Of a stretch of 64,000 nt of DNA, positions 26,055 to 57,682 are shown in pieces (positions within the stretch are counted from its first letter, which is position 1; each line of letters opens with the position of its first letter). Source of the DNA: Escherichia phage KK4. The position numbers and the translations under genes are program-made. The notes below the pieces were generated by a model. The model searched no databases and had not been told where the DNA came from. It was given only the letters and a program-made list of their open reading frames with translations. The DNA lies in sequence record OR327750.1; one strand, given 5' to 3'.

Positions 26055-27465
<1,411 letters not shown>

Positions 27466-35794: not shown

Positions 35795-35813
35795 ATTTCC
35801 GCCACGCGTTATT

Positions 35814-36640
<827 letters not shown>

Positions 36641-36651
36641 ATTGCCTCCTA

Positions 36652-39072: not shown

Positions 39073-39171
39073 TTTTATTTCCTTTTTAATTTAATTAACA
39101 GTTGGTGCTATGACGATGTATGACCTCATAGCTGGTCAGTGAGATAATTATAATCTATTTATAATAAGCAA

Positions 39172-40160: not shown

Positions 40161-40407
40161 AAAGTTCAACTACCTCTTCAGTTTCAGCTTCAAACACATC
40201 ACGGTTATCTTTATGATACAAAGCTAATAGACGATTAAACATCTTACCATCAACGCCAAGTTCATCTTTAGCACGAATTCGAATATCTTTAATCAGTTCA
40301 TTATAACCGGAAATTTTCAGTTTATGATCAGATGCTTCTTTAATAAATTTAGCCAAGTCTTCGCCATGGATAGCTTCATCAAATTCAACCATTTCTTTTT
40401 TAGCCAT
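40138..40407 (-). CDS. dsbA: DsbA, double-stranded DNA-binding protein
   Basis: 89-aa ORF in T4 position. Confidence 0.85.
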   Translation of the reverse strand: MAKKEMVEFDEAIHGEDLAKFIKEASDHKLKISGYNELIKDIRIRAKDELGVDGKMFNRLLALYHKDNRDVFEAETEEVVELYDTVFSK

Positions 40408-40415
40408 TATTCACC

Positions 40416-41333
40416 TCAAAATTCATTAATGCTATTAGTTAATTTAGAAAGACCCGCTTTTACAAAATATGAATAAATTTTGCCACGCGGTGGTAATTTA
40501 TATGAATTATAGTAATTCACAATGTTTGAAGCAATATTATCAGGAATATAATCAAAATCAATTAGAACTAAATTTTCTTTATAACGATTATATTCAGATT
40601 CTGTGAGAAGCACCTTAGCTTGCTCACGATCATTAGCAATAGCTTCAACGATTGAAGTTTTCATTGAAGGAGTCCGTTCACCTTCAACTTTGGTAAACCA
40701 AAAGTCAGATCGTACTTTAACTGAAGCAACGTTATCCTTTTTGTCGCCTTTAAGGATTTTAGTCATACAGTCAATTTCAGCAGAACCGCTTTTAATTTTA
40801 ACCCATTTCTTATGCATCGGTGACCATTGCTTAACATTTGGATATTTGTGAAGCTGTGTAAAGTCACCATCCGATGAAATGATTAAAATCTTGTGTCCTT
40901 CTAAAGAGAACTTTTTAACAAGAACAGCAATGTGGTCATCTGCTTCATACTTATCAATATCCATAACAATATATGGCATATAAGCTTTCAATTCATCTAT
41001 AACTTTATGGCTGGATTCAAAATAACCTTCCCAGTCCCAAGTAGATTCTTCTCGTGCTTTTCCACGGTTTTTCTTATAATAATAAGCGAAATCACGACGC
41101 CAGTATCCAGATTTCGCGTTATCAATACACAGTACAATTTTAGTGTATCCAAGCGTTTTTGCTTTTTTGACATTAAACTTAATTGAGTTCAATATCAAAT
41201 GACGAACCATTGATAAATTAATTTTTTCTTTATCTGGGAAGTTTACCAGAGCAGTTGAAAGAGCAATTTGACTAAAGTCGATAAAGCAAATTCCTTCTTT
41301 GTAATCTTCATCCAGCATCATTTCTAAATCCAT
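40416..41333 (-). CDS. rnh: RNase H (5'-3' exonuclease, FEN-1 family)
   Basis: 305 aa from internal Met MDLEMMLDEDYKEGICFIDFSQIA…. Confidence 0.9.
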   Translation of the reverse strand: MDLEMMLDEDYKEGICFIDFSQIALSTALVNFPDKEKINLSMVRHLILNSIKFNVKKAKTLGYTKIVLCIDNAKSGYWRRDFAYYYKKNRGKAREESTWDWEGYFESSHKVIDELKAYMPYIVMDIDKYEADDHIAVLVKKFSLEGHKILIISSDGDFTQLHKYPNVKQWSPMHKKWVKIKSGSAEIDCMTKILKGDKKDNVASVKVRSDFWFTKVEGERTPSMKTSIVEAIANDREQAKVLLTESEYNRYKENLVLIDFDYIPDNIASNIVNYYNSYKLPPRGKIYSYFVKAGLSKLTNSINEF

Positions 41334-41395
41334 ATGAACCTCGTTCAATTAGTGAGATTTCTATTATATACTATCTAAATCTTAAAGTAAACAGG

Positions 41396-41403
41396 TATAA
41401 ATA
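41396..41403 (+). promoter_or_regulatory. T4 late promoter (TATAAATA) for gene 34
   Basis: Exact TATAAATA 35 nt upstream of the gene 34 ATG. Confidence 0.65.
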
Positions 41404-41437
41404 CTTATTATTGAAAACACAATAGGAGCCCGGGAGA

Positions 41438-44400
41438 ATGGCCGAGATTAAAAGAAAGTTCAGAGCAGAAGATGGTCTGGACGCAGGTGGCGATAAAATA
41501 ATCAACGTAGCTTTAGCTGATCGTACCGTAGGAACTGACGGTGTTAACGTTGATTACTTAATTCAAGAAAACACAGTTCAGCAATATGATCCAACTCGTG
41601 GATATTTAAAAGATTTTGTAATCATTTATAATAATCGTTTTTGGGCAGCAACGGATAATATTCCAAAACCTGCTGGAAATTTTAATAGAATTCGTTGGAA
41701 AGCATTACGTACTGATGCTGTATATACAACCGTATCATCTGGACCATATCAATTAAAATCCGGAGAAGCAATTTCAGTAGATACATCAGTTGGCAATGAC
41801 ATTGAATTTACTTTACCACCTTCTCCGCTTGATGGAGAAACCGTAATAATTCAAGATATCGGTGGAAAACCTGGCATAAATCAGGTTAAAATAAATTCTT
41901 CAAATCAGAGTATTGTCAATTTTAGAGGTGAACAGGTACGTTCAGTTTTAATGACTCATCCAAAGTCACAGATGGTATTCATTTTTAATAACCGTTTGTG
42001 GCAAATGTATATTGCTGATTATAGCAGAGAAGCTGCAATTGTTACTCCATCGACTGCATATCAAGCACAATCTAATGATTTTATCGTACGTAGATTTACT
42101 TCTGCCGCACCGATTAATGTTAAACTTCCAAGATTTGCCAATCATGGAGATATCATTAATTTCGTTGATTTAGATAAATTAAATCCACTTTATCATACAA
42201 TTGTTACGACATATGATGAAACGACGTCAGTGCAAGAAGTTGGAACTCATTCCATTGAAGGCCGTACATCGATTGACGGTTTCTTGATGTTTGACGATAA
42301 TGAGAAATTGTGGAGATTGTTTGACGGGGATAGTAAAGCACGTTTACGCATTATAACAACTAATTCTAATATTCGTCCAAATGAAGAAGTCATGGTATTT
42401 GGCGCGAATAATGGAACAACCCAAACAATTGAACTTCAGCTTCCGACTGATATTTCTGTTGGTGATACTGTCAAAATTTCCATGAATTACATGAGAAAAG
42501 GACAAACAGTTAAAATCAAAGCTGCAGGTGAAGATAAAATTGCTTCTTCAGTTCAATTGCTGCAATTCCCAAAACGCTCAGAATATCCGCCTGAAGCTGA
42601 ATGGGTAACAGTTCAAGAATTAGTTTTTAACGGTGAAACTAATTATGTTCCAGTTTTACAACTTGCTTATATAGAAGATTCTGATGGAAAATACTGGGTT
42701 GTACAGCAAAACGTTCCAACTGTAGAAAGAGTAGACTCTTTAAATGCTTCTACTAGAGCAAGATTAGGCGTAATTGCTTTAGCTACACAAGCTCAAGCAA
42801 ATGCTGATTTAGAAAATTCTCCACAAAAAGAATTGGCAATTACTCCAGAAACGTTAGCTAATCGTACTGCTACAGAAACTCGCAGAGGTATTGCAAGAAT
42901 AGCAACTACTGCTCAAGTGAATCAGAACACCACATTCTCTTTTGCAGATGACCTTATCATCACTCCTAAAAAGCTGAATGAAAGAACTGCTACAGAAACT
43001 CGTAGAGGTGTCGCTGAAATTGCTACGCAGCAGGAAACTAATACAGGTACTGATGATACTACAATCATTACTCCTAAAAAGCTTCAAGCTCGCCAAGGTT
43101 CTGAATCATTATCTGGTATTGTAACTTTTGTATCTACTGCAGGAGCTACTCCAGCTTCTAGCCGTGAATTAAATGGTACGAATGTTTATAATAAAAACAC
43201 TAATAATTTAGTTGTTTCACCTAAAGCTTTGGATCAGTATAAAGCTACTCCAACGCAACAAGGCGCAGTAATTTTAGCAGTTGAAAGTGAAGTAATTGCT
43301 GGACAAAGCCAAGAAGGATGGGCAAATGCGGTTGTAACGCCAGAAACGTTACATAAAAAGACATCAACTGATGCAAGAATTGGTTTAATTGAAATTGCTA
43401 CACAAAGTGAAGTTAATACAGGAACTGATTATACTCGTGCAGTCACTCCTAAAACTTTAAATGACCGTAGAGCAACTGAAAGTTTAAGTGGTATAGCTGA
43501 AATTGCTACACAGGTTGAATTCGACGCAGGCGTCGACGATACTCGTATCTCTACACCATTAAAAATTAAAACCAGATTTAATAGTACTGATCGTACTTCT
43601 GTTGTTGCTCTATCTGGATTAGTTGAATCAGGAACTCTCTGGGACCATTATACCCTTAATATTCTTGAAGCAAACGAGACACAACGTGGTACACTTCGTG
43701 TAGCTACACAGGTCGAAGCTGCCGCAGGAACATTAGATAATGTTTTAATAACTCCTAAAAAGCTTTTAGGTACTAAATCTACTGAAGCACAGGAAGGTGT
43801 TATTAAAGTTGCAACTCAGTCTGAAACTGTGACTGGAACATCAGCAAATACTGCTGTATCTCCAAAAAATTTAAAGTGGATTGTGCAGAGTGAACCAACT
43901 TGGGCAGCAACTACTCTGATAAGAGGGTTTGTTAAAACTTCATCTGGTTCAATTACATTCGTTGGTAATGATACGGTAGGTTCAACACAACCATTAGAAT
44001 CATATGAGAAAAATGGTTATGCAGTATCACCATATGAATTAAATCGCGTATTAGCAAATTATTTGCCATTAAAAGCAAAAGCTGTAGATAGTAATTTATT
44101 AGATGGTCTAGATTCGCTCCAGTTCATTCGTAGGGACATTGCACAAACAGTTAATGGTTCACTAACCTTAACCCAACAAACGAATCTGAGTGCCCCTCTT
44201 GTATCATCTAGTACTGCTACATTCGGTGGATCAGTTTCAGCAAATAGTACATTAACTATTTCTAATACTGGAACGGCAACTCGTCTGATTTTTGAGAAAG
44301 GACCTCAAACTGGAACAAACCCGGCTCAAACGATGACTGTCAGAGTGTGGGGAAATCAATTTAGTGGGGAATCAGACACAACACGTTCTACCGTATTTGA

Positions 44401-45307
44401 AGTTAGTGATGAAACGTCTAGTCATTTTTATTCTCAGCGTAATAAAGCTGGAAATATAACATTTAATATCAACGGTACAGTAACACCGATAAATGTTAAT
44501 GCTTCAGGAACATTGAATGCAAATGGTGTAGCAACATTTGGTAATTCAGTCACTGCAACTGGTGAAATTATTTCTCGAAGCGCAAATGCTTTCCGTGCTA
44601 TTAACGGAAATTATGGTTTCATTGTTCGCAATGATGGATCAGTAACGAATTTTATGCTTACTGCATCGGGTGATCAAACCGGCGGATTTAATGGATTGCG
44701 TCCTTTAGCTATTAATAATGCATCTGGCCAAGTAACGATTGGTGAAAGCTTAATCATTGCAAAAGGTGCTACTATAAGTTCAGGCGGTTTAACTGTTAAC
44801 TCGAGAATTCGTTCTCAAGGTGTTAAAACATCTGATTTATATACTCGTGCGCCAACATCTGATACAGTAGGATTCTGGTCAATTGATATTAACGATTCAG
44901 CCACTTATAATCAATTCCCTGGTTATTTTAAAATGGTTGAAAAAACTAATGAAGTGACTGGACTTCCATATTTAGAACGCGGTGAAGAAGTTAAATCTCC
45001 TGGTACATTGACTCAGTTTGGTAACACACTTGATTCGCTTTATCAAGATTGGATTACTTATCCAACGACCCCAGAAGCACGTACCACTCGCTGGACGCGT
45101 ACATGGCAGAAAACTAAAAATTCTTGGTCAAGTTTTGTTCAGGTATTCGATGGAGGTAACCCTCCTCAACCTTCTGATATAGGAGCAATCCCATCTGATA
45201 ATGGAATAATAGGTAATCTTACTATTCGTGATTTCTTACGAATTGGTAATGTTCGCATTATTCCTGACCCAGTGAATAAAACTGTTAAATTTGAATGGGT
45301 TGAATAA
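41438..45307 (+). CDS. 34: gp34, long tail fibre proximal subunit
   Basis: 1289-aa ORF, same length as T4 gp34; repetitive beta-rich fibre sequence. Confidence 0.95.
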   Translation: MAEIKRKFRAEDGLDAGGDKIINVALADRTVGTDGVNVDYLIQENTVQQYDPTRGYLKDFVIIYNNRFWAATDNIPKPAGNFNRIRWKALRTDAVYTTVSSGPYQLKSGEAISVDTSVGNDIEFTLPPSPLDGETVIIQDIGGKPGINQVKINSSNQSIVNFRGEQVRSVLMTHPKSQMVFIFNNRLWQMYIADYSREAAIVTPSTAYQAQSNDFIVRRFTSAAPINVKLPRFANHGDIINFVDLDKLNPLYHTIVTTYDETTSVQEVGTHSIEGRTSIDGFLMFDDNEKLWRLFDGDSKARLRIITTNSNIRPNEEVMVFGANNGTTQTIELQLPTDISVGDTVKISMNYMRKGQTVKIKAAGEDKIASSVQLLQFPKRSEYPPEAEWVTVQELVFNGETNYVPVLQLAYIEDSDGKYWVVQQNVPTVERVDSLNASTRARLGVIALATQAQANADLENSPQKELAITPETLANRTATETRRGIARIATTAQVNQNTTFSFADDLIITPKKLNERTATETRRGVAEIATQQETNTGTDDTTIITPKKLQARQGSESLSGIVTFVSTAGATPASSRELNGTNVYNKNTNNLVVSPKALDQYKATPTQQGAVILAVESEVIAGQSQEGWANAVVTPETLHKKTSTDARIGLIEIATQSEVNTGTDYTRAVTPKTLNDRRATESLSGIAEIATQVEFDAGVDDTRISTPLKIKTRFNSTDRTSVVALSGLVESGTLWDHYTLNILEANETQRGTLRVATQVEAAAGTLDNVLITPKKLLGTKSTEAQEGVIKVATQSETVTGTSANTAVSPKNLKWIVQSEPTWAATTLIRGFVKTSSGSITFVGNDTVGSTQPLESYEKNGYAVSPYELNRVLANYLPLKAKAVDSNLLDGLDSLQFIRRDIAQTVNGSLTLTQQTNLSAPLVSSSTATFGGSVSANSTLTISNTGTATRLIFEKGPQTGTNPAQTMTVRVWGNQFSGESDTTRSTVFEVSDETSSHFYSQRNKAGNITFNINGTVTPINVNASGTLNANGVATFGNSVTATGEIISRSANAFRAINGNYGFIVRNDGSVTNFMLTASGDQTGGFNGLRPLAINNASGQVTIGESLIIAKGATISSGGLTVNSRIRSQGVKTSDLYTRAPTSDTVGFWSIDINDSATYNQFPGYFKMVEKTNEVTGLPYLERGEEVKSPGTLTQFGNTLDSLYQDWITYPTTPEARTTRWTRTWQKTKNSWSSFVQVFDGGNPPQPSDIGAIPSDNGIIGNLTIRDFLRIGNVRIIPDPVNKTVKFEWVE

Positions 45308-45315
45308 GAGGTATT

Positions 45316-46431
45316 ATGGAAAAATTTATGGCAGAGTTTGGACAAGGATATGTCCAAACGCCATTTTTATCGGAAAGCAATTCAGTAAGATATAAAATAA
45401 GCATAGCGGGTTCTTGCCCGCTTTCTACTGCGGGGCCATATGTTAAATTTCAGGATAATCCCGTTGGAAATCAAACATTTAGTGCAGGTCTTCATTTAAG
45501 AGTTTTTGACCCTTCTACGGGAGCATTAGTTGATAGTAAGTCATATGCTTTTTCTGCTTCAAACAATACAACATCTGCCGCTTTTGTCAGTTTCATGAAT
45601 TCTTTGTCAAACAATAAACTTGTTGCTATATTAACTAGCGGAAAGGTTAATTTTCCTCCTGAAGTGGTATCTTGGTTAAGGGGAGCAGGAACTTCAGTTT
45701 TTCCATCAGATTCAGTATTGTCAAGATTTGACGTGTCATATGCTGCTTTTTACACTTCTTCTAAAAGAGCTATCGCATTAGAGCATGTTAAACTAAGTAA
45801 TAGAAAAAGCACAGATGACTATCAAACTATGTTAGATGTTGTATTTGATAGTTTAGAAGACGTTGGAGCGACAGGATTTCCAAAAAGAACTTATGAAAGC
45901 GTTGAACAATTTATGTCTGCGGTTGGAGGAACTAATAATGAAATTGCGCGATTGCCAACTTCAGCTGCTATAAGTAAACTTTCTGACTACAATTTAATTC
46001 CTGGTGATGTTCTTTATCTTAAAGCACAGTTATATGCTGATGCTGATTTACTTGATCTTGGAACTTCAAATATATCTATTCGTTTTTATGATGCATCAAA
46101 TGGATATATTTCCTCGACCCAAGCTGAGTTTACTGGGCAAGCTGGGTCTTGGGAATTAAAAGAAGATTATGTAGTTGTTCCTGAAAATGCAGTAGGATTT
46201 ACGATATATGCACAGAGAACTGCACAAGCTGGTCAAGGCGGAATGAGGAATTTAAGCTTTTCTGAAGTATCAAGAAATGGCGGCATTTCAAAACCTGCCG
46301 AATTTGGCGTCAACGGTATTCGCGTTAATTATGTCTGTGAATCGGCTTCACCTCCAGATATAATGGTACTTCCTACACAGGCATCGTCTAAAACTGGTAA
46401 AGTGTTTGGACAGGAATTTAGAGAAGTTTAA
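45316..46431 (+). CDS. 35: gp35, long tail fibre hinge protein
   Basis: 371-aa ORF in T4 order. Confidence 0.9.
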   Translation: MEKFMAEFGQGYVQTPFLSESNSVRYKISIAGSCPLSTAGPYVKFQDNPVGNQTFSAGLHLRVFDPSTGALVDSKSYAFSASNNTTSAAFVSFMNSLSNNKLVAILTSGKVNFPPEVVSWLRGAGTSVFPSDSVLSRFDVSYAAFYTSSKRAIALEHVKLSNRKSTDDYQTMLDVVFDSLEDVGATGFPKRTYESVEQFMSAVGGTNNEIARLPTSAAISKLSDYNLIPGDVLYLKAQLYADADLLDLGTSNISIRFYDASNGYISSTQAEFTGQAGSWELKEDYVVVPENAVGFTIYAQRTAQAGQGGMRNLSFSEVSRNGGISKPAEFGVNGIRVNYVCESASPPDIMVLPTQASSKTGKVFGQEFREV

Positions 46432-46436
46432 ACTGA

Positions 46437-46460
46437 GGGAGCCTTCGGGTTCCTTTTTTC
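46437..46460 (+). terminator. Intrinsic terminator after gene 35 (GGGAGCC-UUCG-GGUUCC hairpin plus U7)
   Basis: Stem with one G-U wobble, UUCG loop, followed by TTTTTTC. Confidence 0.65.
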
Positions 46461-46462
46461 TT

Positions 46463-46470
46463 TATAAATA
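46463..46470 (+). promoter_or_regulatory. T4 late promoter (TATAAATA) for genes 36-37-38
   Basis: Exact TATAAATA 24 nt upstream of the gene 36 ATG. Confidence 0.65.
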
Positions 46471-46493
46471 ATATTAAAATAAAGGGGCATACA

Positions 46494-47144
46494 ATGGCTG
46501 ATTTAAAAGTAGGTTCAACTGTAGGTGGATCTGTCATTTGGCATCAAGGAAATTTTCCGTTGAATTCAGCCGGTGACGATGTACTCTACAAATCATTTAA
46601 AATATATTCAGAATATAATAAACCACAGGCAGCTGATAATGATTTCGTTTCTAAATCTACTGGTGGTACTTACACAGGCCCAGTTACTATTAATTATGGT
46701 GTAAATAGTTATCTTCAATTAAGTAATAATGAAACCCCCATCCGAATTCGTTCTGGTGGCGGCACTGGTAATACTCTTGTAGTTGGTGGCTCTTCTGGCG
46801 GTATTAGTTTTAGACCAGCAGGTAGTGAAATCACTACTGGACAAATTACTATTACGCCAGAAGGTTTGACAACATTTACCAAAGCTGTAACGGCTCCATC
46901 TGTAACTGTTACATCTACTCCTTCCGCAGCATCAGATGCTACTCGTAAAGATTATGTTGATGGAGCAATAAATACTGTTACTGCAAATGCAAACTCTAGG
47001 GTATTACGCTCTGGAGACACTATGACAGGAAATTTAACTGCGCCAAACCTTTTTTCGCAGAATCCTGCATCTCAACCTTCACACGTTCCACGATTTGACC
47101 AAATCGTAATTAAGGATTCTGTTCAAGATTTCGGCTATTATTAA
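46494..47144 (+). CDS. 36: gp36, long tail fibre distal connector
   Basis: 216-aa ORF in T4 order. Confidence 0.9.
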
Positions 47145-47152
47145 GAGGACTT

Positions 47153-50119
47153 ATGGCTACTTTAAAACAAATACAATTTAAAAGAAGCAAAACTGCAGGT
47201 CAACTTCCTGCTGCTTCAGTATTAGCCGAAGGTGAATTGGCTATTAATTTAAAAGATAAAACAATTTTCACAAAAGATGACTCAGGCAATGTTATAGAAT
47301 TAGGTTTAAAATATGGAGGAACAATTGATGGTTCTTTAACTGTTAATGGAAATATAATTGGAAATTTAACAGGTAACGCTGCAACTGCAACGAAATTAAA
47401 AACAGCACGAAAAATTAATGGTATATCCTTTGATGGGTCAAAGGATATCACGCTAACTCCATCTGACATAAATGTCAATAGCACAACATTTATAAAAAAT
47501 AATGGCGAATTACCTGTTGATGCTAATTTAGATGAGTATGGGCCTGTTGAAGAATATCTTGGAGTTTGGTCGAAAGCAACTTCAACCAACGCTCAACCAG
47601 CAAATAAATTTCCAGAACAAAATGCTGTAGGTGTGCTAGAAGTATTTGTGGCCGGTCAATTTGCTGGTACTCAGAGATATACAACTAGATACGGAAATGT
47701 TTATATTCGTTCCTTGACTGCTACATGGAACGGAGTAAACGGTCCGTGGAGTGCGTGGCGAAATATTCAATCTGGTACTCGTTCACTGTCAACAACAATT
47801 GATCTTAATGATCTAGGAGGCGCTGAACACCTTGGTTTGTGGCGAAATAGTTCAAATTCCATTGCTACCTTTGACAGAAATTTCCCAGAAGAGGGGTCGT
47901 CAGCTCAAGGTCTTTTGGAAGTATATGAAGGTGGAAACTATTCTCGCACACAGAGATATACAACCAGATTTGGTGTTGTTTATACTCGTTGTCTTACTGC
48001 TGCGTGGGATGCTTCTGCGCCTAAATGGGGACCGTGGCAACAAGTCGGTAATGTCACACCAGCGACTTTCTATGACGGAGATCTGAATGATTTTAAAACT
48101 CCTGGGTTATATAATATTTTAGGCACTGATGCCGTTATTAACTGTCCTACAGGTGAAGGTTTGCCGACTGTTATTGTTGGTTTGCTGGAAGTTAAACAGC
48201 GTGCTTCTGGCGGTGCTATTTTCCAAAAATTTACTACTGCCGGAACAGGTGCAACTACACGCGATCGTATTTTTGAGCGTGCATATACTGGTGGTGTGTG
48301 GGGTACATGGAACGAAGTATATACATCTTACTCTCTTCCAATTACTTTGGGTATGGGTGGTATTAAATCTAACTTAGCAGAGTTAGACTGGCAAGCATTT
48401 GATTTTGTTCCTGGTAGTATGTTTAGCGTTCCTTTGAACAAAATAAAGAACATGCCATCAAATATGGATTGGGGTACGATTGACGGAAACCTGGTTATGT
48501 TTTCTGTTGGTCCTAGCGAGCACACCAGCACAGGACGTACTGTTCAGGTTTGGCGTGGAACTGTATCCCAGACAAACTATCGTTATTTTGTCGTTCGTGT
48601 ATTCGGTAATCCAGGGAGTAGAACATGTACAGTTCGACGCGTTGTTCTTGAAGACGGATCACATACTTGGACTGCTAAACAAGATTTTAATGGCGCAGTT
48701 AACTTTAACTCTACTGTTAACCTTAATAACACTACCACATTTAAAACAGAAGTTAAATTCCGCTCGTTGAATGCATTCCGTATGTATGGCGGAAAATTTG
48801 GTACATTTTTACGTAATGATGGAGAGAGTCTTTATATTCTTTCCACCGACGAAGATGATCAAAATGGAAACTTTAATACAAATAGACCTTTCCGTTATGA
48901 ATTAAGAACTGGTGATGTTACTTTGGGTGGTGTTAGTGGTGCTAACGTTTTAAAATTAAAACGTGATTCTCTCACCGCATTTTTTGGCGGTGATATTAAC
49001 ATTAAAGGCACGATGACTTTTGACGCCGGACGTTTAGGATCACGAGATTATTTTAAATTTAACCATTGGGGTGATAGCAATAACGCTCGTGATAACATCA
49101 TCCAGTTAGAAGATAGTCAAGGCGCCCATTTTTCCACTGAACGTACTTTAGCGACAGGTGCAATTAAGACTAAATTTTTTGGTGAAATTGAATCCGATGG
49201 TAAATTGGTTATTAAACGTCCGGGTGATTCTATTGTATTATCAACAACTGCTAGTAATTCTTTGCATATTCGCGGTGATATAGACGGGACTGGTAACTGG
49301 TATATTGGTAAAGGTGGTGCTGATAATGGATTAGCGTTCTATAGTTATGCTACTAATGCTGGTGTATACATTACAAACGCAGGAGATATCTCGCTAAGTC
49401 CAAAGGGTGCCGAAATGGCTCAGGTCAATAACGTTCGATTATATGTTCATGGTGAACGTTGGACCGCTAGTCAACCAGGTGATTGGGGCAGTCAGTGGCA
49501 AGTGGAAGCGCCAATATTCGTCGATCATGGTTATGTTTCACAGGATTGTTATTATCCAATTATTAAAGGAAGAAGTGTAATCACCAATCAAGGGTTTGTA
49601 ACTGCCGTCGATCTTGGTATTCGTCGTGTCCCTAACAATTGGGGGCAAGCAATTATTCGTGTTGGATCTGCAGAGGCATCGCCAGCGGCTGGACACCCTA
49701 ACGCGGTATTTGAATTTCATTACGACGGTACTTTCTATTCTCCTGGTAATGGTAACTTTAACGATGTGTATATTCGTTCCGATGGTCGTCTTAAGATTAA
49801 TAAAAAAGAGCTAGAAAACGGAGCACTTGAAAAAGTATGCCGACTGAAAGTTTATACATACGATAAGGTTAAGTCTATTAAAGATCGTAGTGTTATTAAA
49901 CGTGAAGTTGGTATTATTGCTCAGGATCTTGAAAAAGAATTACCGGAAGCTGTGTCTAAAGTTGAAGTTGATGGATCTGATGTTCTGACAATTTCTAACT
50001 CCGCTGTGAATGCTCTTTTAATTAAGGCTATCCAAGAAATGAGCGAAGAAATTAAAGAATTAAAAACGCCTTTCTTCACTAAAATTGCTCGCAAAATTAG
50101 TAAATATTTTAAATTCTAA
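47153..50119 (+). CDS. 37: gp37, long tail fibre distal subunit with a C-terminal intramolecular chaperone (self-cleaving) domain
   Basis: 988-aa ORF; conserved N-terminus; C-terminal motif [18 protein letters not shown] with Ser codon at 49778-49780. Confidence 0.9.
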
Positions 50120-50153
50120 CAACAAGGGGCAACGCCCCCTTTGGAGATAAATT

Positions 50154-50936
50154 ATGGCAGTAGTTGGTGTTCCTGGTTGGATTGGTAGTTCATCCGTAAA
50201 TGAAACAGGACAACGATGGATGAGTCAAGCGGCTGGTCAATTAAGATTGGGTGTTCCTTGCTGGATGAGTCAATTTGCAGGTCGCTCACGAGAAATTATT
50301 CATACACTTGGAGCAGACCATAACTTCAATGGTCAATGGTTCCGAGATAGATGTTTTGAGGCCGGTAGTGCACCTATAGTGTTTAATATTACAGGTGATT
50401 TAGTATCATATTCTAAAGATGTTCCTTTATTCTTCATGTACGGGGATACACCAAATGAATATGTTCAGTTAAATATACATGGCGTAACGATGTATGGACG
50501 TGGCGGTAATGGTGGTAGCAATAGTCCTGGCTCAGCTGGAGGTCATTGTATTCAAAACGATATTGGTGGGAGACTAAGAATTAATAATGGTGGAGCTATT
50601 GCTGGCGGCGGTGGCGGCGGTGGCGGCGGATATTATTCTCCTTTTTCACAAATGAGATTAACCTTTGGCGGTGGTGGTGGGCGTCCGTTTGGTGCACCTG
50701 GCGGATCTATTGATATGCAATCAGGCGCAACTGCTGGTACTATTTCTGCACCTGGCTCAGGATCCGTGAATGGTATCTATAATGGTGGAAACGGTGGTGA
50801 AGTAGGTTCCGCGGGAGGTAGATGCAATATTCGCGGTCAAGGATCTGAATATAATGGCGGCGCTGCTGGTTATGCTGTCATAGGGTCTGCTCCAACGTGG
50901 CAAAATGTTGGAGCAATATATGGTCCAAGAGTATAA
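50154..50936 (+). CDS. 38: gp38, T2-type receptor-recognising tail fibre adhesin with glycine-rich motifs
   Basis: 260-aa ORF with poly-Gly islands ([23 protein letters not shown]) separated by variable segments; unlike the 183-aa T4 gp38. Confidence 0.85.
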
Positions 50937-50966
50937 TGTGAATAAATACCCTTAAAAGGAGGGTCT

Positions 50967-51623
50967 ATGGCAGCACCTAGAATATCATTTTCGCCCTCTG
51001 ATATTCTGTTTGGTGTTCTAGATCGCTTGTTCAAAGATAACGCTACCGGGAAGGTTCTTGCTTCCCGAGTAGCTGTCGTAATTCTTTTATTTATGATGGC
51101 GATTGTTTGGTATAGGGGAGATAGTTTCTTTGAGTACTATAAGCAATCAAAGTATGAAACATACAGTGAAATTATTGAAAAGGAAAGAAATGCACGCTTT
51201 GAATCTGTCGCCCTGGAACAACTCCAGATAGTTCATATATCATCTGAGGCAGACTTTAGTGCGGTGTATTCTTTCCGCCCTAAAAACTTAAACTATTTTG
51301 TTGATATTATAGCATATGAAGGAAAATTACCTTCAACAATAAGTGAAAAATCACTTGGAGGATATCCTGTTGATAAAACTATGGATGAATATACAGTTCA
51401 TTTAAATGGACGTCATTATTATTCCGACTCAAAATTTGCTTTTTTACCAACTAAAAAGCCTACTCCCGAAATAAACTACATGTACAGTTGTCCATATTTT
51501 AATTTGGATAATATCTATGCTGGAACGATAACCATGTACTGGTATAGAAATGATCATATAAGTAATGACCGCCTTGAATCAATATGTGCTCAGGCGGCCA
51601 GAATATTAGGAAGGGCTAAATAA
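50967..51623 (+). CDS. t: Holin T
   Basis: 218-aa ORF matching recalled T4 holin, with one N-terminal transmembrane segment. Confidence 0.93.
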   Translation: MAAPRISFSPSDILFGVLDRLFKDNATGKVLASRVAVVILLFMMAIVWYRGDSFFEYYKQSKYETYSEIIEKERNARFESVALEQLQIVHISSEADFSAVYSFRPKNLNYFVDIIAYEGKLPSTISEKSLGGYPVDKTMDEYTVHLNGRHYYSDSKFAFLPTKKPTPEINYMYSCPYFNLDNIYAGTITMYWYRNDHISNDRLESICAQAARILGRAK

Positions 51624-51896
51624 TTATTTGTTCGTATACATTTCTAGATATCGATATACACCCTCAAAACCCTCGTTGAATTCATCGATGAGGGTTTTCT
51701 TATCTTCTTGGGTTAATTCAGAAACAATTTTACGGAATAAATTCTGATTTAATTTTCTACCTTCATGCGTTACTCCAATCTCATTCAGAAATGCAATAAA
51801 ATTAGCACGATTTTCAACAATATCTTCTCTGGAAAATTTAATCAAAATAGATGCAACAGTAATAATTTCACGAACTGTATCAATGTTTTTATTCAT
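51624..51896 (-). CDS. asiA: AsiA, anti-sigma-70 factor
   Basis: 90-aa ORF matching recalled T4 AsiA (MNKNIDTVREIITVASILIKFSREDIVENRANFIAFLNEIGV…). Confidence 0.95.
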   Translation of the reverse strand: MNKNIDTVREIITVASILIKFSREDIVENRANFIAFLNEIGVTHEGRKLNQNLFRKIVSELTQEDKKTLIDEFNEGFEGVYRYLEMYTNK

Positions 51897-51908
51897 TAAC
51901 TATACCAC

Positions 51909-52061
51909 TCAATTAGTTGACTTTGTTATAATATCATCAGACACTTGATTTGTAAACTGGTCTGTGTTATTTTCTTCAAAAATTTTTTCTACGAATTCCT
52001 TGAACGACTCACGTTCCTGAGCTGCATTATGCTCGATTACCATTTCAAGATTATGACTCAT
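51909..52061 (-). CDS. Small hypothetical protein, 50 aa; not in the supplied ORF track
   Basis: ATGA start/stop overlap with arn; hand-translated MSHNLEMVIEHNAAQERESFKEFVEKIFEENNTDQFTNQVSDDIITKSTN. Confidence 0.45.
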   Translation of the reverse strand: MSHNLEMVIEHNAAQERESFKEFVEKIFEENNTDQFTNQVSDDIITKSTN

Positions 52062-52336
52062 TCGAAATAATCTTCAATTTCGTAATCATGGACATAAATC
52101 ATTATAGTTTCTAATACATCATCAATACTTTTTCCTGGAACTGGAATTACGTAAAAATATCCTGCTTTTGAGAGGTCTTTATAAGTTCCAATCAAGAAAT
52201 CGTTATTCTCAAGATGTAGTTCTTCAACTAATTCATTAACAATTGAATGGTATAAATTTGGTAGAAACTTATATAGCTTTTCTAGAATATCAATTTTGAT
52301 TGTATATTGAACCACAGATTGAGAATCAATAATCAT
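52058..52336 (-). CDS. arn: Arn, anti-restriction protein (inhibitor of McrBC)
   Basis: 92-aa acidic ORF in the T4 position after asiA. Confidence 0.85.
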   Translation of the reverse strand: MIIDSQSVVQYTIKIDILEKLYKFLPNLYHSIVNELVEELHLENNDFLIGTYKDLSKAGYFYVIPVPGKSIDDVLETIMIYVHDYEIEDYFE

Positions 52337-52419
52337 AGACCTTCCCCTTATGTTTCTGTTTGCGATTAGATTCTTTAAACGCTTTCTTCTTATCCTTATG
52401 AACAGAAGCTTTATTAAAA

Positions 52420-52638
52420 TTATGTTTTGCGACTAAATTGTTCATAGTGCTGAATTACCTCTCTCAAACATTTGCATGTGAATGAAAACTTTTTAGCTAC
52501 ACCACATTCAAATATATGTTCTCTTAAATCACGTGTGTCAGTATATCCCATCTCAACAATAAAATGTCGTATTAGATTTTTATCTTTATCATTGAGAGAA
52601 TTAAAATAATCGGATTTTGAATTAATTTCCCTGGCCAA
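52420..52638 (-). CDS. Hypothetical protein
   Basis: 72-aa ORF. Confidence 0.5.
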   Translation of the reverse strand: MAREINSKSDYFNSLNDKDKNLIRHFIVEMGYTDTRDLREHIFECGVAKKFSFTCKCLREVIQHYEQFSRKT

Positions 52639-52918
52639 ATTGAATCACCTTCAGTTGACGTTTTAGTTCTTTTATCATTTCTTCATTCATCGCAATATAA
52701 AGATCGCGTAAAGCGGGTTTTAACATTCCATTTACTGGAGAACTAAATGGACATACATAATCTTTTCCTACGAGCTTTTTAGTGAATTCCATATTACAGA
52801 ACTGAAATGCCGGTTCATTAGCATAAATTCCCCAATTGGTTGACATCATTTTATTGGCATATTCCAATGCTTGGATTTGATTAGTAATTCCATCAATTTG
52901 AAACTTTTTAATATTCAT
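52622..52918 (-). CDS. Hypothetical protein
   Basis: 98-aa ORF. Confidence 0.5.
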   Translation of the reverse strand: MNIKKFQIDGITNQIQALEYANKMMSTNWGIYANEPAFQFCNMEFTKKLVGKDYVCPFSSPVNGMLKPALRDLYIAMNEEMIKELKRQLKVIQFGQGN

Positions 52919-53385
52919 TAGTAAAGGTCCTCGGAGTAAAGTTCTTTTTCACTACCACCACGTTCAATACGCACTTGTCCAGCGTAAGTTGCAATAATCA
53001 TTGCTTCTTCACGTGTCCAGTAATTGCTATACTGGTCAATAAATCCTTGGTCTTCACCACAAACATGGTCTGATACAAGTTTATCACTTACCTGGTCAAG
53101 AACTTCAGCCATATCTTTAGAATAATGACGAGCACCAGGAATAACCAGAGTCCCACCATCTTTTAACTTAAAGCGGTTGGCTGCACACACAATTCGACGT
53201 TGATATTTTTCATTATTGTTCCAATGAGCTACTTGCCAACAGATTTCAGGAACCTCTTCTAAAACATCCTCTTCCGTATATTCGGTGTAGTCGCCATAGG
53301 CCTGTAATTTAGCTGCTAGACTTTCTGGAGTTTCACGTAATAAAGCCAGGTCTAATAATTCAAGACGCTCTTTGAAGGTTTTCAT
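52918..53385 (-). CDS. Hypothetical protein
   Basis: 155-aa ORF, ATGA overlaps on both sides. Confidence 0.6.
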
Positions 53386-53537
53386 TTGGTTTCCTCAACA
53401 CTTTTAATTTTTATAGCTTGTTTAGAACTTTCAAAGCATTGACAATATACTCTTACCGCATCAAACTGGTTGGCCGCTTTAAGATGGACTACACCTTCGT
53501 CGTTATAAAATTCTACGACAATTTTAAATGTTTTCAT
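53382..53537 (-). CDS. Small hypothetical protein, 51 aa; not in the supplied ORF track
   Basis: ATGA overlaps at both start and stop; hand-translated [51 protein letters not shown]. Confidence 0.5.
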
Positions 53538-53863
53538 TTAAACCATCCTTTAATACGTTGCCATAAAGTTTTCTGTTGAGCTTTGTTAACACCAATTGAA
53601 CGAATAACTGGTTGAGATTCCTGAAATTCTTTATAATCAGCAAGGTAAATTTCGTAAGCTGCATCCGTAAATGAACTTATCGCTGCCATAAAATTATTGC
53701 GAATACCTACTGGAGCATCTTTACTTTCACGAATAATCATGTATTTACCAGTCTTAATCTTTACGATAGTTCCAAGATAAGCTCCATGGTACCAGATGTC
53801 CCAACCCTCTTGAGTAGGTTCTACACAACGACGAAGTTCATTGACAATTTCTAACTTGTTCAT
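53534..53863 (-). CDS. Hypothetical protein
   Basis: 109-aa ORF. Confidence 0.55.
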   Translation of the reverse strand: MNKLEIVNELRRCVEPTQEGWDIWYHGAYLGTIVKIKTGKYMIIRESKDAPVGIRNNFMAAISSFTDAAYEIYLADYKEFQESQPVIRSIGVNKAQQKTLWQRIKGWFK

Positions 53864-53873
53864 TATTTATTCC

Positions 53874-54509
53874 TCACAGTTCAGATGCTACAGTGATTAC
53901 AGCTTCAATGTTTTCTGCCGAGCGTTTAATGTCAAGATACACATTACCGTTTTTAGCGATTTTACATGACATTCCGATATCAGTAAATTTCTGAATATGA
54001 TGTTCCATCATTTTGTATCCAAAAATTCGCATATTTCCATTATTGTTAATTTCAAAATTACGAATTCCGTGAGTGCGTTTTTCTAAAATGGCAAGATAAT
54101 TACTACGATAAGTTTCAACCTTTTTAAGAACAAATCCATTTTCATCTAAAAGTTTTAACATGAGGTCTTTATCTTCTTCCATATCAGAAGTAATCTCACG
54201 AGCTTTACGAGTTGCTCGTTTTTTCAGTAGTTCCGGAGCATTTTCTTGCGCGTATAAAGTTGCTGCATTTGAAATAATATCCTGAGCTTCACCAGTAATG
54301 ATTAATCCATCACCAGATTTCTCCACCAGGCCTTTTTTAATCAATACCCCAATATTACTATTAACTACTGCGTTACCTAAATCTGGATGCACCTCACGAA
54401 CTTCTGCAGCTGTAATGAAATCTTTCTTAGCAATAGTAATTAAAATCGCAGCAGTTTTTTCATTCAGAACATCGTTAGAAGCTTTGATGATGTAAGTTAC
54501 TTTAGACAT
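53874..54509 (-). CDS. motA: MotA, middle-promoter transcription activator
   Basis: 211-aa ORF matching recalled T4 MotA. Confidence 0.93.
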   Translation of the reverse strand: MSKVTYIIKASNDVLNEKTAAILITIAKKDFITAAEVREVHPDLGNAVVNSNIGVLIKKGLVEKSGDGLIITGEAQDIISNAATLYAQENAPELLKKRATRKAREITSDMEEDKDLMLKLLDENGFVLKKVETYRSNYLAILEKRTHGIRNFEINNNGNMRIFGYKMMEHHIQKFTDIGMSCKIAKNGNVYLDIKRSAENIEAVITVASEL

Positions 54510-54539
54510 TTTAATCTCCGTTTCAGTTCATTTATTTGA

Positions 54540-54575
54540 TAGGTCTATAGTATCATGTTTAAAGCAGAAGTAAAC
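54540..54575 (-). promoter_or_regulatory. T4 early promoter for motA
   Basis: Minus-strand GTTTACTTCTGCTTTAAACATGATACTATAGACC, 30 nt upstream of the motA ATG. Confidence 0.55.
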
Positions 54576-54614
54576 ACTTTTTTGCACTCTTTTTCAAGAG
54601 CTCTAATAAAGTAC

Positions 54615-54842
54615 TTACTTAATGTTCAGATTACGAACTTCGATTTCGTCTTCATGGGCAAAATCAAACTGTTTGAATTCTGTGCCACCTTTAAATTTAA
54701 AAATCATTGTGAAGAAAGTCAGAACACCAGGTTTTTCTTCACGAACTCCACAGATATCATATTCAATACCATCTACAACCAGTTTGTTAGCAGTCAGAGC
54801 ATTTTTAGCTTTAACGATTTCGTTTTCGATTTTAAATTTCAT
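54615..54842 (-). CDS. Hypothetical protein
   Basis: 75-aa ORF preceded by the early promoter at 54884-54920. Confidence 0.55.
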   Translation of the reverse strand: MKFKIENEIVKAKNALTANKLVVDGIEYDICGVREEKPGVLTFFTMIFKFKGGTEFKQFDFAHEDEIEVRNLNIK

Positions 54843-54940
54843 TTTTGTATCTCCGGGTTGTTTGTTTCAGTTCATTTATTTGATAGTTGTATAGTACCAT
54901 AAAGCTTTATGCTTGTAAACCGTTTTGTGAAAAAAATTTT

Positions 54941-54971
54941 AAAATAAAAAAGGGAGAGCCGAGGCTCTCCC
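54941..54971 (-). terminator. Intrinsic terminator (GGGAGAGCC-UCG-GCUCUCCC hairpin plus U-tract)
   Basis: Perfect GC-rich stem followed by UUUUUUAUUUU on the minus strand. Confidence 0.65.
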
Positions 54972-54976
54972 TAAAA

Positions 54977-55126
54977 TTACTGCATGACTGTGATAACTGT
55001 CATGATAACACGTTGAATTCCGAACGCAAGAAGACCTCCTGCTACGGCTGGAACAACGCCTAAACCCGTCAGTAAAATGCTACCAGATACTAATGCAGCG
55101 CTTGTAATACCAATGAATGGACTCAT
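54977..55126 (-). CDS. Small hydrophobic membrane protein, 49 aa; not in the supplied ORF track
   Basis: ATGA overlap with the gene 52 stop; hand-translated MSPFIGITSAALVSGSILLTGLGVVPAVAGGLLAFGIQRVIMTVITVMQ. Confidence 0.5.
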   Translation of the reverse strand: MSPFIGITSAALVSGSILLTGLGVVPAVAGGLLAFGIQRVIMTVITVMQ

Positions 55127-56451
55127 TTGATTTCCTCTAAATCTTTGGTGTATTCGGTAACTACATCAGTAGTTTTCCAATATTCGTTTTCTTCTTTTTT
55201 AGCTTTAGCTTCTTCAGCAAGTTTCTTTGCTTCGTCGGAAGTCATATGAAAAATATTCATTCCGACTAGTTTATCAACATAAGAAGAATACATATCAATT
55301 TTAGAAAGTTCTTCGGTCAGTTCTTTGCGAGTTTTACCCTGCACAACAATTTCACCTGAAATTACTTTCTTAATGAAATGTGCCTTGGCAAAGGCTAAAC
55401 GAAATGCTGATTCAGTTTCTTTGATTTTGTTATCAATTCGTTTTTGGACATAAGTTTTACGAACTTCAACAAAGTCTTTAATTAAATCAACTACGTTATC
55501 GTAAACTTGCAGCTTTCCTTTCTCATTAATGACTGTAATATTCTGAGAACGACGCTCAATCAGTCCGAAGTCTTTCATAATTTTTGCATGGCGTTCTTCT
55601 TCATTATCGCTCAAAGAGTATTCTTTTCGGAATTTAACTTTGAATCCAAAACCATGCTCACCACAAGCATCATCCCATGTAATGAAGCCTTTATCTTCAA
55701 GTGGGTCTAAGATTTTACTCACATAAGTTTCACGATCATACTTATACGGAATCTCAGTGATATGCATTTGAGTTCGTGAAGTAAACTTATATGTTCCACG
55801 AATTTCATATTGCCCATCAATTTCAACGACTTCACCACGAAATTCTGGGAATTCTACCTTCGGTTTAGTTACTTTCTTTCCTTGAAGAGCTTGCAGTACA
55901 GCTTTCTTAACAGAAGAAACACTATGAGGAAGAATGTAAGTTGCATAACCAGTTGCAATACCGGAAACGCCATTAAGAAGAACAGTAGGAATAACAGGCA
56001 AATAGAAAGCAGGCGGAATGTGTTCTTTATCTTGATGTACCGGAGCATATTCAGTATCTTTATATACGTTATAGAAATTTTTACTTACACGAGCAAAAAT
56101 ATAACGACTTGCTGCTGCCTTTTGGACAGTACGAGAACCAAAGTTTCCTTGACCGTCTAACAGAGGAAAGTTATTATTCCAAGTGTTAGCCATCAAAGCA
56201 CCTGCGTCTTGCGCAGAGTTTTCACCATGATGATATCCAAGGTCCGCTACACCACCTGCGATAGAAGCGAGCTTATGAAACTTATCTTTATTTCCTCGTG
56301 CCAAATCAAGAGCTCGAGCAATAACAAATCGTTGAACTGGCTTAAATCCGTCAATCATATTTGGAATGGCACGATTTTCAACCGTGTACATAGCATAAGC
56401 CAATGCTTCATTATCAATGATACTTTTTAAATCACGATTATTCAGTTGCAT
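55123..56451 (-). CDS. 52: gp52, DNA topoisomerase II medium subunit (GyrA-like catalytic Tyr domain)
   Basis: 442-aa ORF matching T4 gp52 length and position. Confidence 0.93.
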   Translation of the reverse strand: MQLNNRDLKSIIDNEALAYAMYTVENRAIPNMIDGFKPVQRFVIARALDLARGNKDKFHKLASIAGGVADLGYHHGENSAQDAGALMANTWNNNFPLLDGQGNFGSRTVQKAAASRYIFARVSKNFYNVYKDTEYAPVHQDKEHIPPAFYLPVIPTVLLNGVSGIATGYATYILPHSVSSVKKAVLQALQGKKVTKPKVEFPEFRGEVVEIDGQYEIRGTYKFTSRTQMHITEIPYKYDRETYVSKILDPLEDKGFITWDDACGEHGFGFKVKFRKEYSLSDNEEERHAKIMKDFGLIERRSQNITVINEKGKLQVYDNVVDLIKDFVEVRKTYVQKRIDNKIKETESAFRLAFAKAHFIKKVISGEIVVQGKTRKELTEELSKIDMYSSYVDKLVGMNIFHMTSDEAKKLAEEAKAKKEENEYWKTTDVVTEYTKDLEEIK

Positions 56452-56455
56452 AAAT

Positions 56456-56596
56456 TTACCATACTAGTGAATGTAGTGCCATAATAACATCAGAAATGAA
56501 AAGCACGACTTGAATTAATCCGAACATTATTCCGTAATATAATGCTATCAATAAAATAGCAAGGGCTAATGAATAGCCCAAGATTTTCTTAATCAT
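56456..56596 (-). CDS. Small membrane protein, 46 aa (52.1 position); not in the supplied ORF track
   Basis: Hand-translated MIKKILGYSLALAILLIALYYGIMFGLIQVVLFISDVIMALHSLVW. Confidence 0.45.
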   Translation of the reverse strand: MIKKILGYSLALAILLIALYYGIMFGLIQVVLFISDVIMALHSLVW

Positions 56597-56747
56597 TAGT
56601 AGATAACAACACAAATGTTAAATATGCACACATACCCTGAGCTAAAGCTTGCGAAAACACACTGCTGGCATCAATACAGATAGTTAAAACACATGCTACT
56701 ATCCAACAAATAAATGAAATAACTCCTAATAATTTTGCGATATTCAT
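56589..56747 (-). CDS. ac: Ac-like small membrane protein (acriflavine sensitivity), 52 aa; not in the supplied ORF track
   Basis: Hand-translated MNIAKLLGVISFICWIVACVLTICIDASSVFSQALAQGMCAYLTFVLLSTND; T4 position between 52 and stp. Confidence 0.5.
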   Translation of the reverse strand: MNIAKLLGVISFICWIVACVLTICIDASSVFSQALAQGMCAYLTFVLLSTND

Positions 56748-56754
56748 ATTTTCC

Positions 56755-56835
56755 TCACTGGCGTCCGAAGACGCCTTTAGTTTTAAGATTATTACGATAG
56801 AACTGCATCACATGTTCGTTATGGAAATTACTCAT
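56755..56835 (-). CDS. stp: Stp, 26-residue peptide that activates the host PrrC anticodon nuclease by acting on EcoprrI; not in the supplied ORF track
   Basis: Hand-translated [26 protein letters not shown], matching recalled T4 Stp; start overlaps the ndd stop (TAATG). Confidence 0.8.
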
Positions 56836-57293
56836 TAATATGCCTGCAAAACAAATTTAAAGTTATCAGCCAACATACGGTTCATTTCTTCAAGTGTTTG
56901 ATACTCAGAATGATGATTACGAGTAAACGCTAAAGCTAACTGTCCTTTTCCAAATCCCGTCGTCAGAGGTTTCATCTTAGAAGCAGGCAGATAAAATACT
57001 GTGTATACCATATTGTTATTTGCAATAGTACGTGCAAGCTGAGACCGACGTTGACGAATATGACTTAGAACTGCACTGAATCCTTGCTTAGAACGCTGAT
57101 TACCTACATAAAATCGTGCAGACACACATGGATTACTAAATGGACGACCATCTAATTTACTTACTAAAAAATAAAATCCAGGTTTAGATAAAATATCTTT
57201 ATGCGGAGTTCCCAAAAACCACTCACCACCCTTGATTGTACCAATAACAGTAGCGCCTGCATTATTCAGATCAGTAACAGTCATGTATTTCAT
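56835..57293 (-). CDS. ndd: Ndd, host nucleoid disruption protein
   Basis: 152 aa from internal Met [25 protein letters not shown]…. Confidence 0.85.
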
Positions 57294-57351
57294 ATTAATT
57301 TCCTCTAAATTATTTTCTACTCCAAGGCCACATGAATACGCGGCCATTAAA

Positions 57352-57567
57352 TTAATCGTCGCAGTCGACGCTCAATTCCCAAAACTCTTCTACTGTATAA
57401 GTTTCAGTATCATTTTCAATACAGAAACGTTCATTACTATTATTTGCTAAAGTAGCATTAACTGTCGGTTTCTCGCTAGTGCTCTTAAGAGGTGAAATAC
57501 GAATTAACTGATCACCGTTATCTAAACAGAAAATTTCACCAACTTTTACATCTTTAAAACTTTTCAT
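57352..57567 (-). CDS. Hypothetical protein
   Basis: 71-aa ORF. Confidence 0.5.
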
Positions 57568-57682
57568 AATTCACCTCAAGGAGTATAAAATCCAAATGCA
57601 GTTGTTGACCATCCCATCCAATATGGGAAATTTGCACCAATGTAAAACATGAGAATATAAAACCAACCACTCAGCAAATTCA

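Follow-up and report, generated by a model that had tools for sequence, protein, structure and literature searches.

Which receptor does this phage recognise with the tip of its long tail fibre, and does the fibre carry a separate adhesin there? We are highly confident that the locus is a Tequatrovirus module for the distal long tail fibre and its adhesin and belongs to the T6 subtype; its mechanism can be read across from homologues. In the 64,000-nucleotide stretch of DNA analysed (the window), two ORFs on the plus strand, gp37 (47153-50119, 988 aa) and gp38 (50154-50936, 260 aa), lie between gp36 and the holin t (50967-51623, the neighbour 3′ of gp38), giving the gene order g36-g37-g38-t. 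The gp36 distal hinge connector (46494-47144, plus strand) was assigned, like its neighbours, from the ORF list, and also by protein and nucleotide comparison. The sequence of the window matches that of Escherichia phage GADU22 (OQ944321.1) exactly; in that record both ORFs are already annotated, gp37 as 'tail fiber protein' and gp38 as 'receptor recognizing protein', and a database search found 656 phage records matching the module. The tail-fibre tip is thus an ordinary, already annotated one, with an architecture that was already known. ORFs of 60-129 aa that lie within g37 on the minus strand or out of frame were set aside as chance ORFs, the 988-aa g37 being strongly conserved across relatives. 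No tRNA genes or Rfam families were found within the window.

Both flanks of the module run collinear with T4 (92-97% nucleotide identity), and homology to T4 is lost from the middle of g36 to the end of g38. The gp36 protein is 99.5% identical to T6 gp36 vs. 66.5% to that of T4, and nucleotide identity of g36 to T4 drops to 46-54% across 46674-46943, so that the non-T4 cassette already includes the central part of gp36 (about 46674-46943). A preliminary description of this DNA had proposed that a near-T4 backbone is paired here with a non-T4 host-range module. The flanks bear this out, but the pairing is nothing special: within this phage group, a T4-like backbone most commonly carries an adhesin-type gp38 module (PMC3157838).

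The gp37 protein is 90% identical to T6 gp37, and is alignable with T4 gp37 only at aa 1-66, where 79% of residues are identical. Pfam places a Gp34_trimer domain at aa 519-581 and, at the extreme C-terminus, a Peptidase_S74 domain (PF13884) on aa 876-934 of 988, well above the curated threshold (E 1.1e-11, 45.3 bits vs. a cut-off of 22). The same C-terminus matches that of Salmonella phage S16 gp37 (E 2e-5 with a single sequence, 1.8e-7 with a profile). The site motif spans aa 872-881 and contains Ser876 (TCC codon, 49778-49780) and Lys881 (codon 49793-49795), which lie five residues apart within SDGRLK; the same S-x4-K spacing is found in the endosialidase dyad and in MYRF (S578/K583). Together, the domain match and the Ser876/Lys881 pair confirm the C-terminal chaperone motif, with its serine at 49778-49780, that had been noted previously. 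A 13-residue stretch around the site is nearly invariant among homologues with only 57-65% overall identity; the search with the chaperone region returned 19 short fragments, which were used for the conservation check alone.

The scissile bond of gp37 is predicted to be Arg875/Ser876. Cleavage there would divide the 108.2-kDa protein into a mature distal half-fibre of 95.4 kDa per chain (aa 1-875, 47153-49777, plus strand) and an intramolecular chaperone of 12.85 kDa (aa 876-988, 49778-50119, plus strand), with 113 residues from Ser876 to the C-terminal end. The motif DVYIR^SDGRLKI has been described for the fPS phages, with cleavage predicted at R^S, and S16 gp37 likewise sheds its last 113 residues (PMC7917993); gp37 of T6 and T2 is cleaved and then capped by gp38 (PMC3157838). 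By analogy with these homologues, gp37 would cleave itself, and DVYIR, at the end of the mature protein, is predicted to be the strand that forms the docking surface for gp38. An AlphaFold2 monomer model of aa 854-988 reached a mean pLDDT of only 47.5, too low for comparing folds, from a shallow alignment of 13 sequences and for a domain that is an intertwined trimer.

The gp38 protein (26.3 kDa), which lies directly 3′ of g37 and 5′ of holin t, belongs with both of its domains to the adhesin family of the T2/T6/S16 type. The attachment domain Gp38_N (PF21721; E 1.3e-19, 70.3 bits vs. a cut-off of 25) covers aa 1-42 (50154-50279, plus strand) and carries the conserved tryptophans Trp9, Trp22 and Trp37, the first two invariant and the third nearly so in the homologue alignment; all three align with tryptophans of S16, and such N-terminal tryptophans serve in docking on gp37 (PMC7917993). 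The GP38 domain (PF05268; E 3e-72, 243.5 bits vs. a cut-off of 25) covers aa 47-260 (50292-50936, plus strand) and consists of a β-helix part and, after it, glycine-rich motifs that alternate with hypervariable loops. Glycine makes up 24% of gp38 overall and 33% of aa 116-260, with runs of nine and five. In the C-terminal half the glycine columns are invariant, with substitutions and indels clustering between them, in keeping with the 260-aa protein with poly-Gly islands between variable segments of the preliminary description. Two solved structures match gp38, the receptor-binding domain of PP01 gp38 (9V85, E 5e-79) and S16 gp38 (6F45_D, E 3e-50). The C-terminal part of gp38 is thus predicted to form a receptor-binding polyglycine-II sandwich, and its presence at the fibre tip in virions would be expected from S16, T6, the BASEL phages and the FL phages.

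As judged from its sequence, the most likely receptor of gp38 is Tsx, an outer-membrane protein of E. coli. Over its full length, gp38 is 99% identical to that of KarlGJung and fPS-65, 97% to WilhelmHis, 94% to T6 and 91% to FL23. Its receptor-binding half is identical in KarlGJung (Bas37), Paracelsus (Bas36) and fPS-65, and differs at one position from WilhelmHis (99.2% identical) and at two from FL23. The T6-like hypervariable segments are therefore shared with Tsx-dependent phages: experiments have identified Tsx as the primary receptor of Bas35, Bas36 and Bas37, with the deep core of LPS as terminal receptor; FL23 and FL44 are Tsx-dependent; and T6-like adhesins use Tsx (PMC3157838). The previous assignment to the T2/K3/Ox2-type adhesins stands as far as the adhesin type is concerned (PF05268/PF21721), but the subtype is that of T6 and Tsx rather than T2 (FadL/OmpF) or K3/Ox2 (OmpA). 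Comparison of the variable segments with adhesins of known receptor specificity, the check suggested at that stage, led to the Tsx-dependent phages KarlGJung and Paracelsus, with which the whole receptor-binding half is shared.

The main competing explanation is that a module of the same architecture has a primary receptor other than Tsx, or not Tsx alone, with OmpA, the LPS inner core or another β-barrel as candidates. fPS-65, with an identical receptor-binding half, infects Yersinia pseudotuberculosis, where the sole requirement found is the LPS inner core and resistant mutants map to heptose synthesis. Since this host reportedly has no Tsx homologue, the specificity of gp38 for Tsx may be less than strict. 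A few substitutions in the gp38 variable loops between PST and T6 alter receptor use, PST also using OmpA, and gp38 of the OmpA phage M1 is 81-84% identical overall to gp38 of the window. However, every variable loop differs in M1, and KarlGJung and Paracelsus (identical half) and WilhelmHis (one position apart) all depend on Tsx in E. coli K-12. The Tsx-using BASEL phages also depend on the LPS deep core, and in them this dependence is attributed to the terminal rather than the primary receptor. We consequently regard a primary receptor other than Tsx, or additional to it, as improbable. That one T6-type adhesin serves two unrelated receptors, Tsx in E. coli and another target in Yersinia, is unlikely; if true, GADU22 could infect Yersinia too, via a second target of its T6-type loops.

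With Tsx as the predicted receptor, loss of tsx is predicted to be the main route to resistance, a forecast that would be useful for cocktail design. The practical value of the analysis lies in predicting with confidence, for a phage from a urinary-tract-infection patient, that Tsx is its receptor and the LPS deep core its terminal receptor. The discovery value of the module is small: the T2/T6 architecture has been known for decades, the S16 and PP01 structures and the cleavage motif are in print, and the genome is published.

The module is of mosaic origin. In 90-nt identity windows, Escherichia phage vB_EcoM_DalCa shows 98-100% nucleotide identity to g37 and to roughly the first 300 nt of g38, while the receptor-binding segment of g38 (50454-50936, plus strand) is 100% identical to KarlGJung (Bas37) and fPS-65, but only 49-67% to DalCa. 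The module is a natural recombinant: g37 and g38 up to the junction resemble DalCa, and the 3′ part of g38 is KarlGJung/fPS-65-like, with the recombination junction near 50454, just ahead of the first glycine motif. It illustrates cleanly how adhesins are exchanged in nature at the boundary of a glycine motif.

The longest glycine-rich motif consists of nine codons, Gly151-159 (50604-50630, plus strand), arranged as (GGC GGC GGT) twice, followed by GGC GGC GGA. The codon repeat is present as the preliminary description had it, but starts at 50604 and not 50601, since 50601-50603 is an alanine codon (GCT). It had been suggested that this GGC/GGT tract could mutate by slippage, and it would then be a contingency repeat that changes the length of the adhesin, and hence host range. 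Tandem Repeats Finder indeed reports three perfect copies of the 9-nt unit TGGCGGCGG at 50603-50629, and exactly three tract residues are absent in one of 119 aligned homologues. On the other hand, all six close relatives have nine glycine codons here and differ only synonymously, at third positions, indicating that tract length is kept while the DNA drifts. The 119 homologues show no insertion column in the tract and gaps in only four; gp38 indels concentrate instead in the variable loops, and shorter glycine runs arise mostly from substitutions at the edges. Moreover, the fixed polyglycine-II core is built from the glycine motifs. In genetic terms, these motifs are documented as places where homologous exchange occurs, and a junction of this kind is seen beside them here. 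In the absence of repeat-number polymorphism among close relatives, slippage was rejected as very improbable. The four gapped homologues comprise two with large deletions, one with a three-residue gap and one that is not listed.

That gp38 is a mere assembly chaperone as in T4, with the receptor-binding site on gp37, was rejected as having a negligible probability: some database records still name the T6 homologue 'distal long tail fiber assembly catalyst', but gp38 has no BLASTP match to T4 gp38 at E 1e-3, as the preliminary description would lead one to expect, the alignment with T4 gp37 is limited to gp37 aa 1-66, the crystal structures matched by gp38 are of adhesins bound at the fibre tip, and receptor specificity follows gp38 sequence in published experiments.

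A T4-type late promoter consensus, TATAAATA, occurs at 46463-46470 on the plus strand, 24 nt 5′ of g36, and is the probable start of a g36-g37-g38(-t) late transcript; in the fPS-65 record, the corresponding position carries the annotation 'predicted late promoter'. Taken over the full window, TATAAATA shows no enrichment (10 copies vs. 9.1 expected), so the promoter call was made by position only, and the only meaningful copies are the two just 5′ of g34 and g36, again by position. Between g37 and g38, a GGGGC...GCCCC hairpin (about 50126-50139) was dropped, as it folds no better than shuffled sequence (z -0.08); a terminator scan made no call at this hairpin.

The homologues suggest the following scheme. 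Late transcription of g36, g37 and g38 would be followed by trimerisation of gp37, aided by the intramolecular chaperone at its C-terminus (aa 876-988). After the trimer has folded, the Ser876/Lys881 dyad would cleave Arg875/Ser876 and the 12.9-kDa chaperone would depart, uncovering a flat gp37 tip made of three DVYIR strands. A single gp38 monomer would dock on this tip via the tryptophans of its N-terminal domain, and its polyglycine-II sandwich would display the hypervariable loops that bind Tsx, the outer-membrane nucleoside channel of E. coli. After Tsx binding, the short fibres would attach irreversibly to the LPS core. Our analysis shows which domains are present, that the catalytic pair is conserved, that the receptor-binding half is identical to that of Tsx-dependent phages, and that the module is mosaic in origin.

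The module can be set beside several known systems. T4 genes 37 and 38 share the genomic position, flanking genes and late expression; however, T4 gp38 is an unrelated assembly chaperone of 183 aa, a size that was given correctly in the preliminary description (in NC_000866, gene 38 has 552 nt, or about 183 codons), and T4 gp37 has no S74-domain match to gp37 of the window and binds the receptor itself. [quoted passage not shown] DalCa has a gp38 receptor-binding half of another type (IAYRPHSGANWQD loops). In KarlGJung, Paracelsus, WilhelmHis and fPS-65, the last isolated on Yersinia, g37 differs blockwise, with 56-80% nucleotide identity in several windows. Compared to T6 (NC_054907), gp38 shows S165P, D187N, A194G, A199S and N234D in or near the loops, plus N206I in the NC_054907 record, and several substitutions in the β-helix part, while central g37 has only 67-78% nucleotide identity. 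The Tsx-specific genes 37 and 38 of T6 nevertheless share with this locus the gene order g36-g37-g38-t, the intramolecular-chaperone motif and the set of variable loops.

The gp37 and gp38 genes lie on the plus strand at 47153-50119 (988 aa) and 50154-50936 (260 aa), just as the preliminary description had placed them. They are preceded on the same strand by the genes for gp34 (41438-45307, 1289 aa), gp35 (45316-46431, 371 aa) and gp36 (46494-47144, 216 aa) and followed by holin t (50967-51623, 218 aa). The query, made up of g37 and g38, was 100% identical to Escherichia phage GADU22 (OQ944321.1), a Tequatrovirus isolated in Turkey from the urine of a patient with a urinary-tract infection, with zero mismatches over 40153-57936. 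That record annotates the two genes as 'tail fiber protein' (gp37) and 'receptor recognizing protein' (gp38); the feature is thus already known and annotated, which makes its interest low. The T4 late-promoter consensus TATAAATA occurs directly 5′ of g34 (41396-41403) and of g36 (46463-46470), so placed that the fibre genes seem to form two late transcription units (compare the annotation of Yersinia phage fPS-65).

On either side of the module, the window is collinear with T4 and shares 92-97% nucleotide identity with it. Identity to T4 falls to about 50% in mid-g36 (46674-46943) and returns over the g36/g37 junction, so that gp37 residues 1-66 are 79% identical to T4, before homology is lost from about 47304 to 50942, just past the gp38 stop codon. 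The proposal of a T4-like backbone carrying a non-T4 distal-fibre module is therefore correct, and PMC3157838 describes this as the predominant state of the phage group. In our searches, 656 phage records matched the module and 233 the gp38 C-terminal domain. Elsewhere in the window, the blastn chain against T4 jumps four regions (31018-31019, 31694-31750, 34849-34854 and 39135-39171), where T4 has the nrdB intron with I-TevIII, the nrdB.1/mobE region, the td intron with I-TevI, and segG. Judging from HSP coordinates set against the T4 annotation, the phage appears to be without these introns and homing-endonuclease genes. Four stretches of 300-560 nt (24996-25511, 27149-27463, 35404-35809 and 36415-36973), located near cd.2/cd.3, near pseT, between td and frd, and near frd.1, were unmatched in the part of T4 used for comparison.

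The claim that gp37 ends in a chaperone motif with a serine at 49778-49780 held up well. The predicted cleavage-site motif occupies aa 872-881, with Ser876 encoded by TCC (49778-49780) and Lys881 at 49793-49795, and a Peptidase_S74 domain ('chaperone of endosialidase') covers aa 876-934 (E 1.1e-11; 45.3 bits vs. a Pfam cut-off of 22). The catalytic dyads described for endosialidases and for MYRF (S578/K583) have this same Ser-x4-Lys spacing. A search with the last 189 residues hit the C-terminal end of gp37 from Salmonella phage S16 (PDB 6F45; E 2e-5), a match improved to 1.8e-7 with a homologue profile, which also made weak contact with the MYRF ICA domain (E 0.068). The 13-residue stretch around the predicted site, including the DVYIR strand predicted to form the gp38 docking surface, is nearly invariant among homologues only 57-65% identical overall, while the sequence upstream varies freely; the same DVYIR^SDGRLKI site has been reported for related phages (PMC7917993). 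With 113 residues from Ser876 to the C-terminus, a cut at Arg875|Ser876 is computed to yield fragments of 95.4 and 12.85 kDa. An AlphaFold2 monomer model of the region was of too low quality for use (pLDDT 47.5).

The gp38 protein has the T2/K3/Ox2-type adhesin architecture attributed to it, with no detectable similarity to the T4 gp38 chaperone. An alignment with the T4 chaperone type, which the preliminary description had named as a refuting outcome, was therefore not obtained. It matches the Pfam families GP38 (E 3e-72) and Gp38_N (E 1.3e-19), S16 gp38 (6F45_D; E 3e-50) and the PP01 gp38 receptor-binding domain (9V85, crystallized as an sfGFP fusion, PMC12892980; E 5e-79). All three N-terminal tryptophans (W9, W22 and W37) are conserved, and the C-terminal half is 33% glycine, with variable segments interleaved with invariant glycine columns. 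The suggestion that the longest glycine tract might vary by slippage found no support. Its nine codons lie at 50604-50630, where Tandem Repeats Finder reports a 9-nt unit repeated three times without error (50603-50629), and all nine are kept in 6/6 close relatives, differing only at synonymous third positions. Among 119 aligned homologues, the tract had gaps in only 4 sequences and no insertion columns; shorter runs came mainly from edge substitutions, and indels were located in the variable segments. The tract is thus constrained in length, which fits the role of glycine motifs as the polyglycine-II core of gp38, and it shows no trace of slippage-driven variation.

Nucleotide identity in 90-nt windows revealed a recombinant structure. 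The module is 98-100% identical to Escherichia phage vB_EcoM_DalCa up to about 50453, and then 49-67% identical to DalCa and 100% to KarlGJung (Bas37) and fPS-65 over 50454-50936. This junction lies immediately ahead of the first glycine-rich motif, GRGGNGG (gp38 aa 115-121). With megablast, homology ended at query position 3363 (aa ~121) in one group of records and at 3475-3481 (aa ~158-160, where the nine-Gly run ends) in a second. The junction and breakpoints correspond to exchange at conserved glycine motifs, as proposed by Tetart, Krisch and colleagues. Separately, contig ABMKHH010000064.1 of an E. coli assembly (GCA_031535085.1) encodes at 6001-6912 a 303-aa hybrid. Its gp38-type N-terminal region (aa 1-156), comprising the attachment and beta-helix portions with the poly-Gly tract at the end, continues in frame into a fibre-tip segment that carries a Peptidase_S74 chaperone of its own. 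The contig is also present in a Logan assembly made independently from the underlying run. The gene follows a 1140-aa gp37-like fibre, and its phage surroundings do not resemble T4: protease and capsid are fused in one gene, and the distal tail protein is like T5 pb9.

The receptor is predicted, with high though not full confidence, to be Tsx, because of identity to Tsx-dependent adhesins, the T6 segment set and the gp38 phylogeny. Our gp38 is 99% identical to those of KarlGJung and fPS-65, with S14A and V15A the sole differences, and 97% to that of WilhelmHis (Bas35); KarlGJung, Paracelsus (Bas36), fPS-65, IP008 and about twenty further records have exactly the same receptor-binding half. The BASEL supplementary table gives Tsx as primary and LPS deep core as terminal receptor of Bas35, Bas36 and Bas37, tsx dependence of Bas35 being confirmed by complementation. 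FL23 and FL44, also Tsx-dependent, have a 98.5% identical gp38 C-terminal domain. The T6 variable-segment set is common to nearly all Tsx-recognising adhesins (Trojet et al.), and the receptor is predictable from gp38 phylogeny, Tsx being the most frequent prediction (Lutz et al.). However, fPS-65 infects Y. pseudotuberculosis, reported to be without a Tsx homologue, and LPS-heptose is the only requirement identified for that phage. It should be noted that the T6 records NC_054907 and MH550421 are not identical in one variable loop of gp38 (GSGSVIGIY in one, GSGSVNGIY in the other), at the position corresponding to the N/I change considered in connection with the host range of phage PST. Some close matches had odd host labels: 'Pseudomonas phage PsgM02F' (96.6% nucleotide identity across g37), a 97%-identical gp38 cluster representative listed as Bacillus cereus, and 'Proteus phage Isf-Pm2' (gp38 C-terminal domain 99.2% identical). 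Contamination or wrong host labels probably account for these, rather than real host jumps.

Slippage aside, the preliminary description of a T2-type module is confirmed in its observations and supported in its interpretation, refined to a T6/Tsx subtype and a recombinant module. By analogy with S16, T2 and T6, the gp37 chaperone domain would drive trimer folding and then cut the folded protein at Arg875|Ser876; its departure would expose the DVYIR tip, on which one gp38 monomer would dock, with its loops binding Tsx. Identities to T6 are 99.5% for gp36, 90% for gp37 and 94% for gp38.
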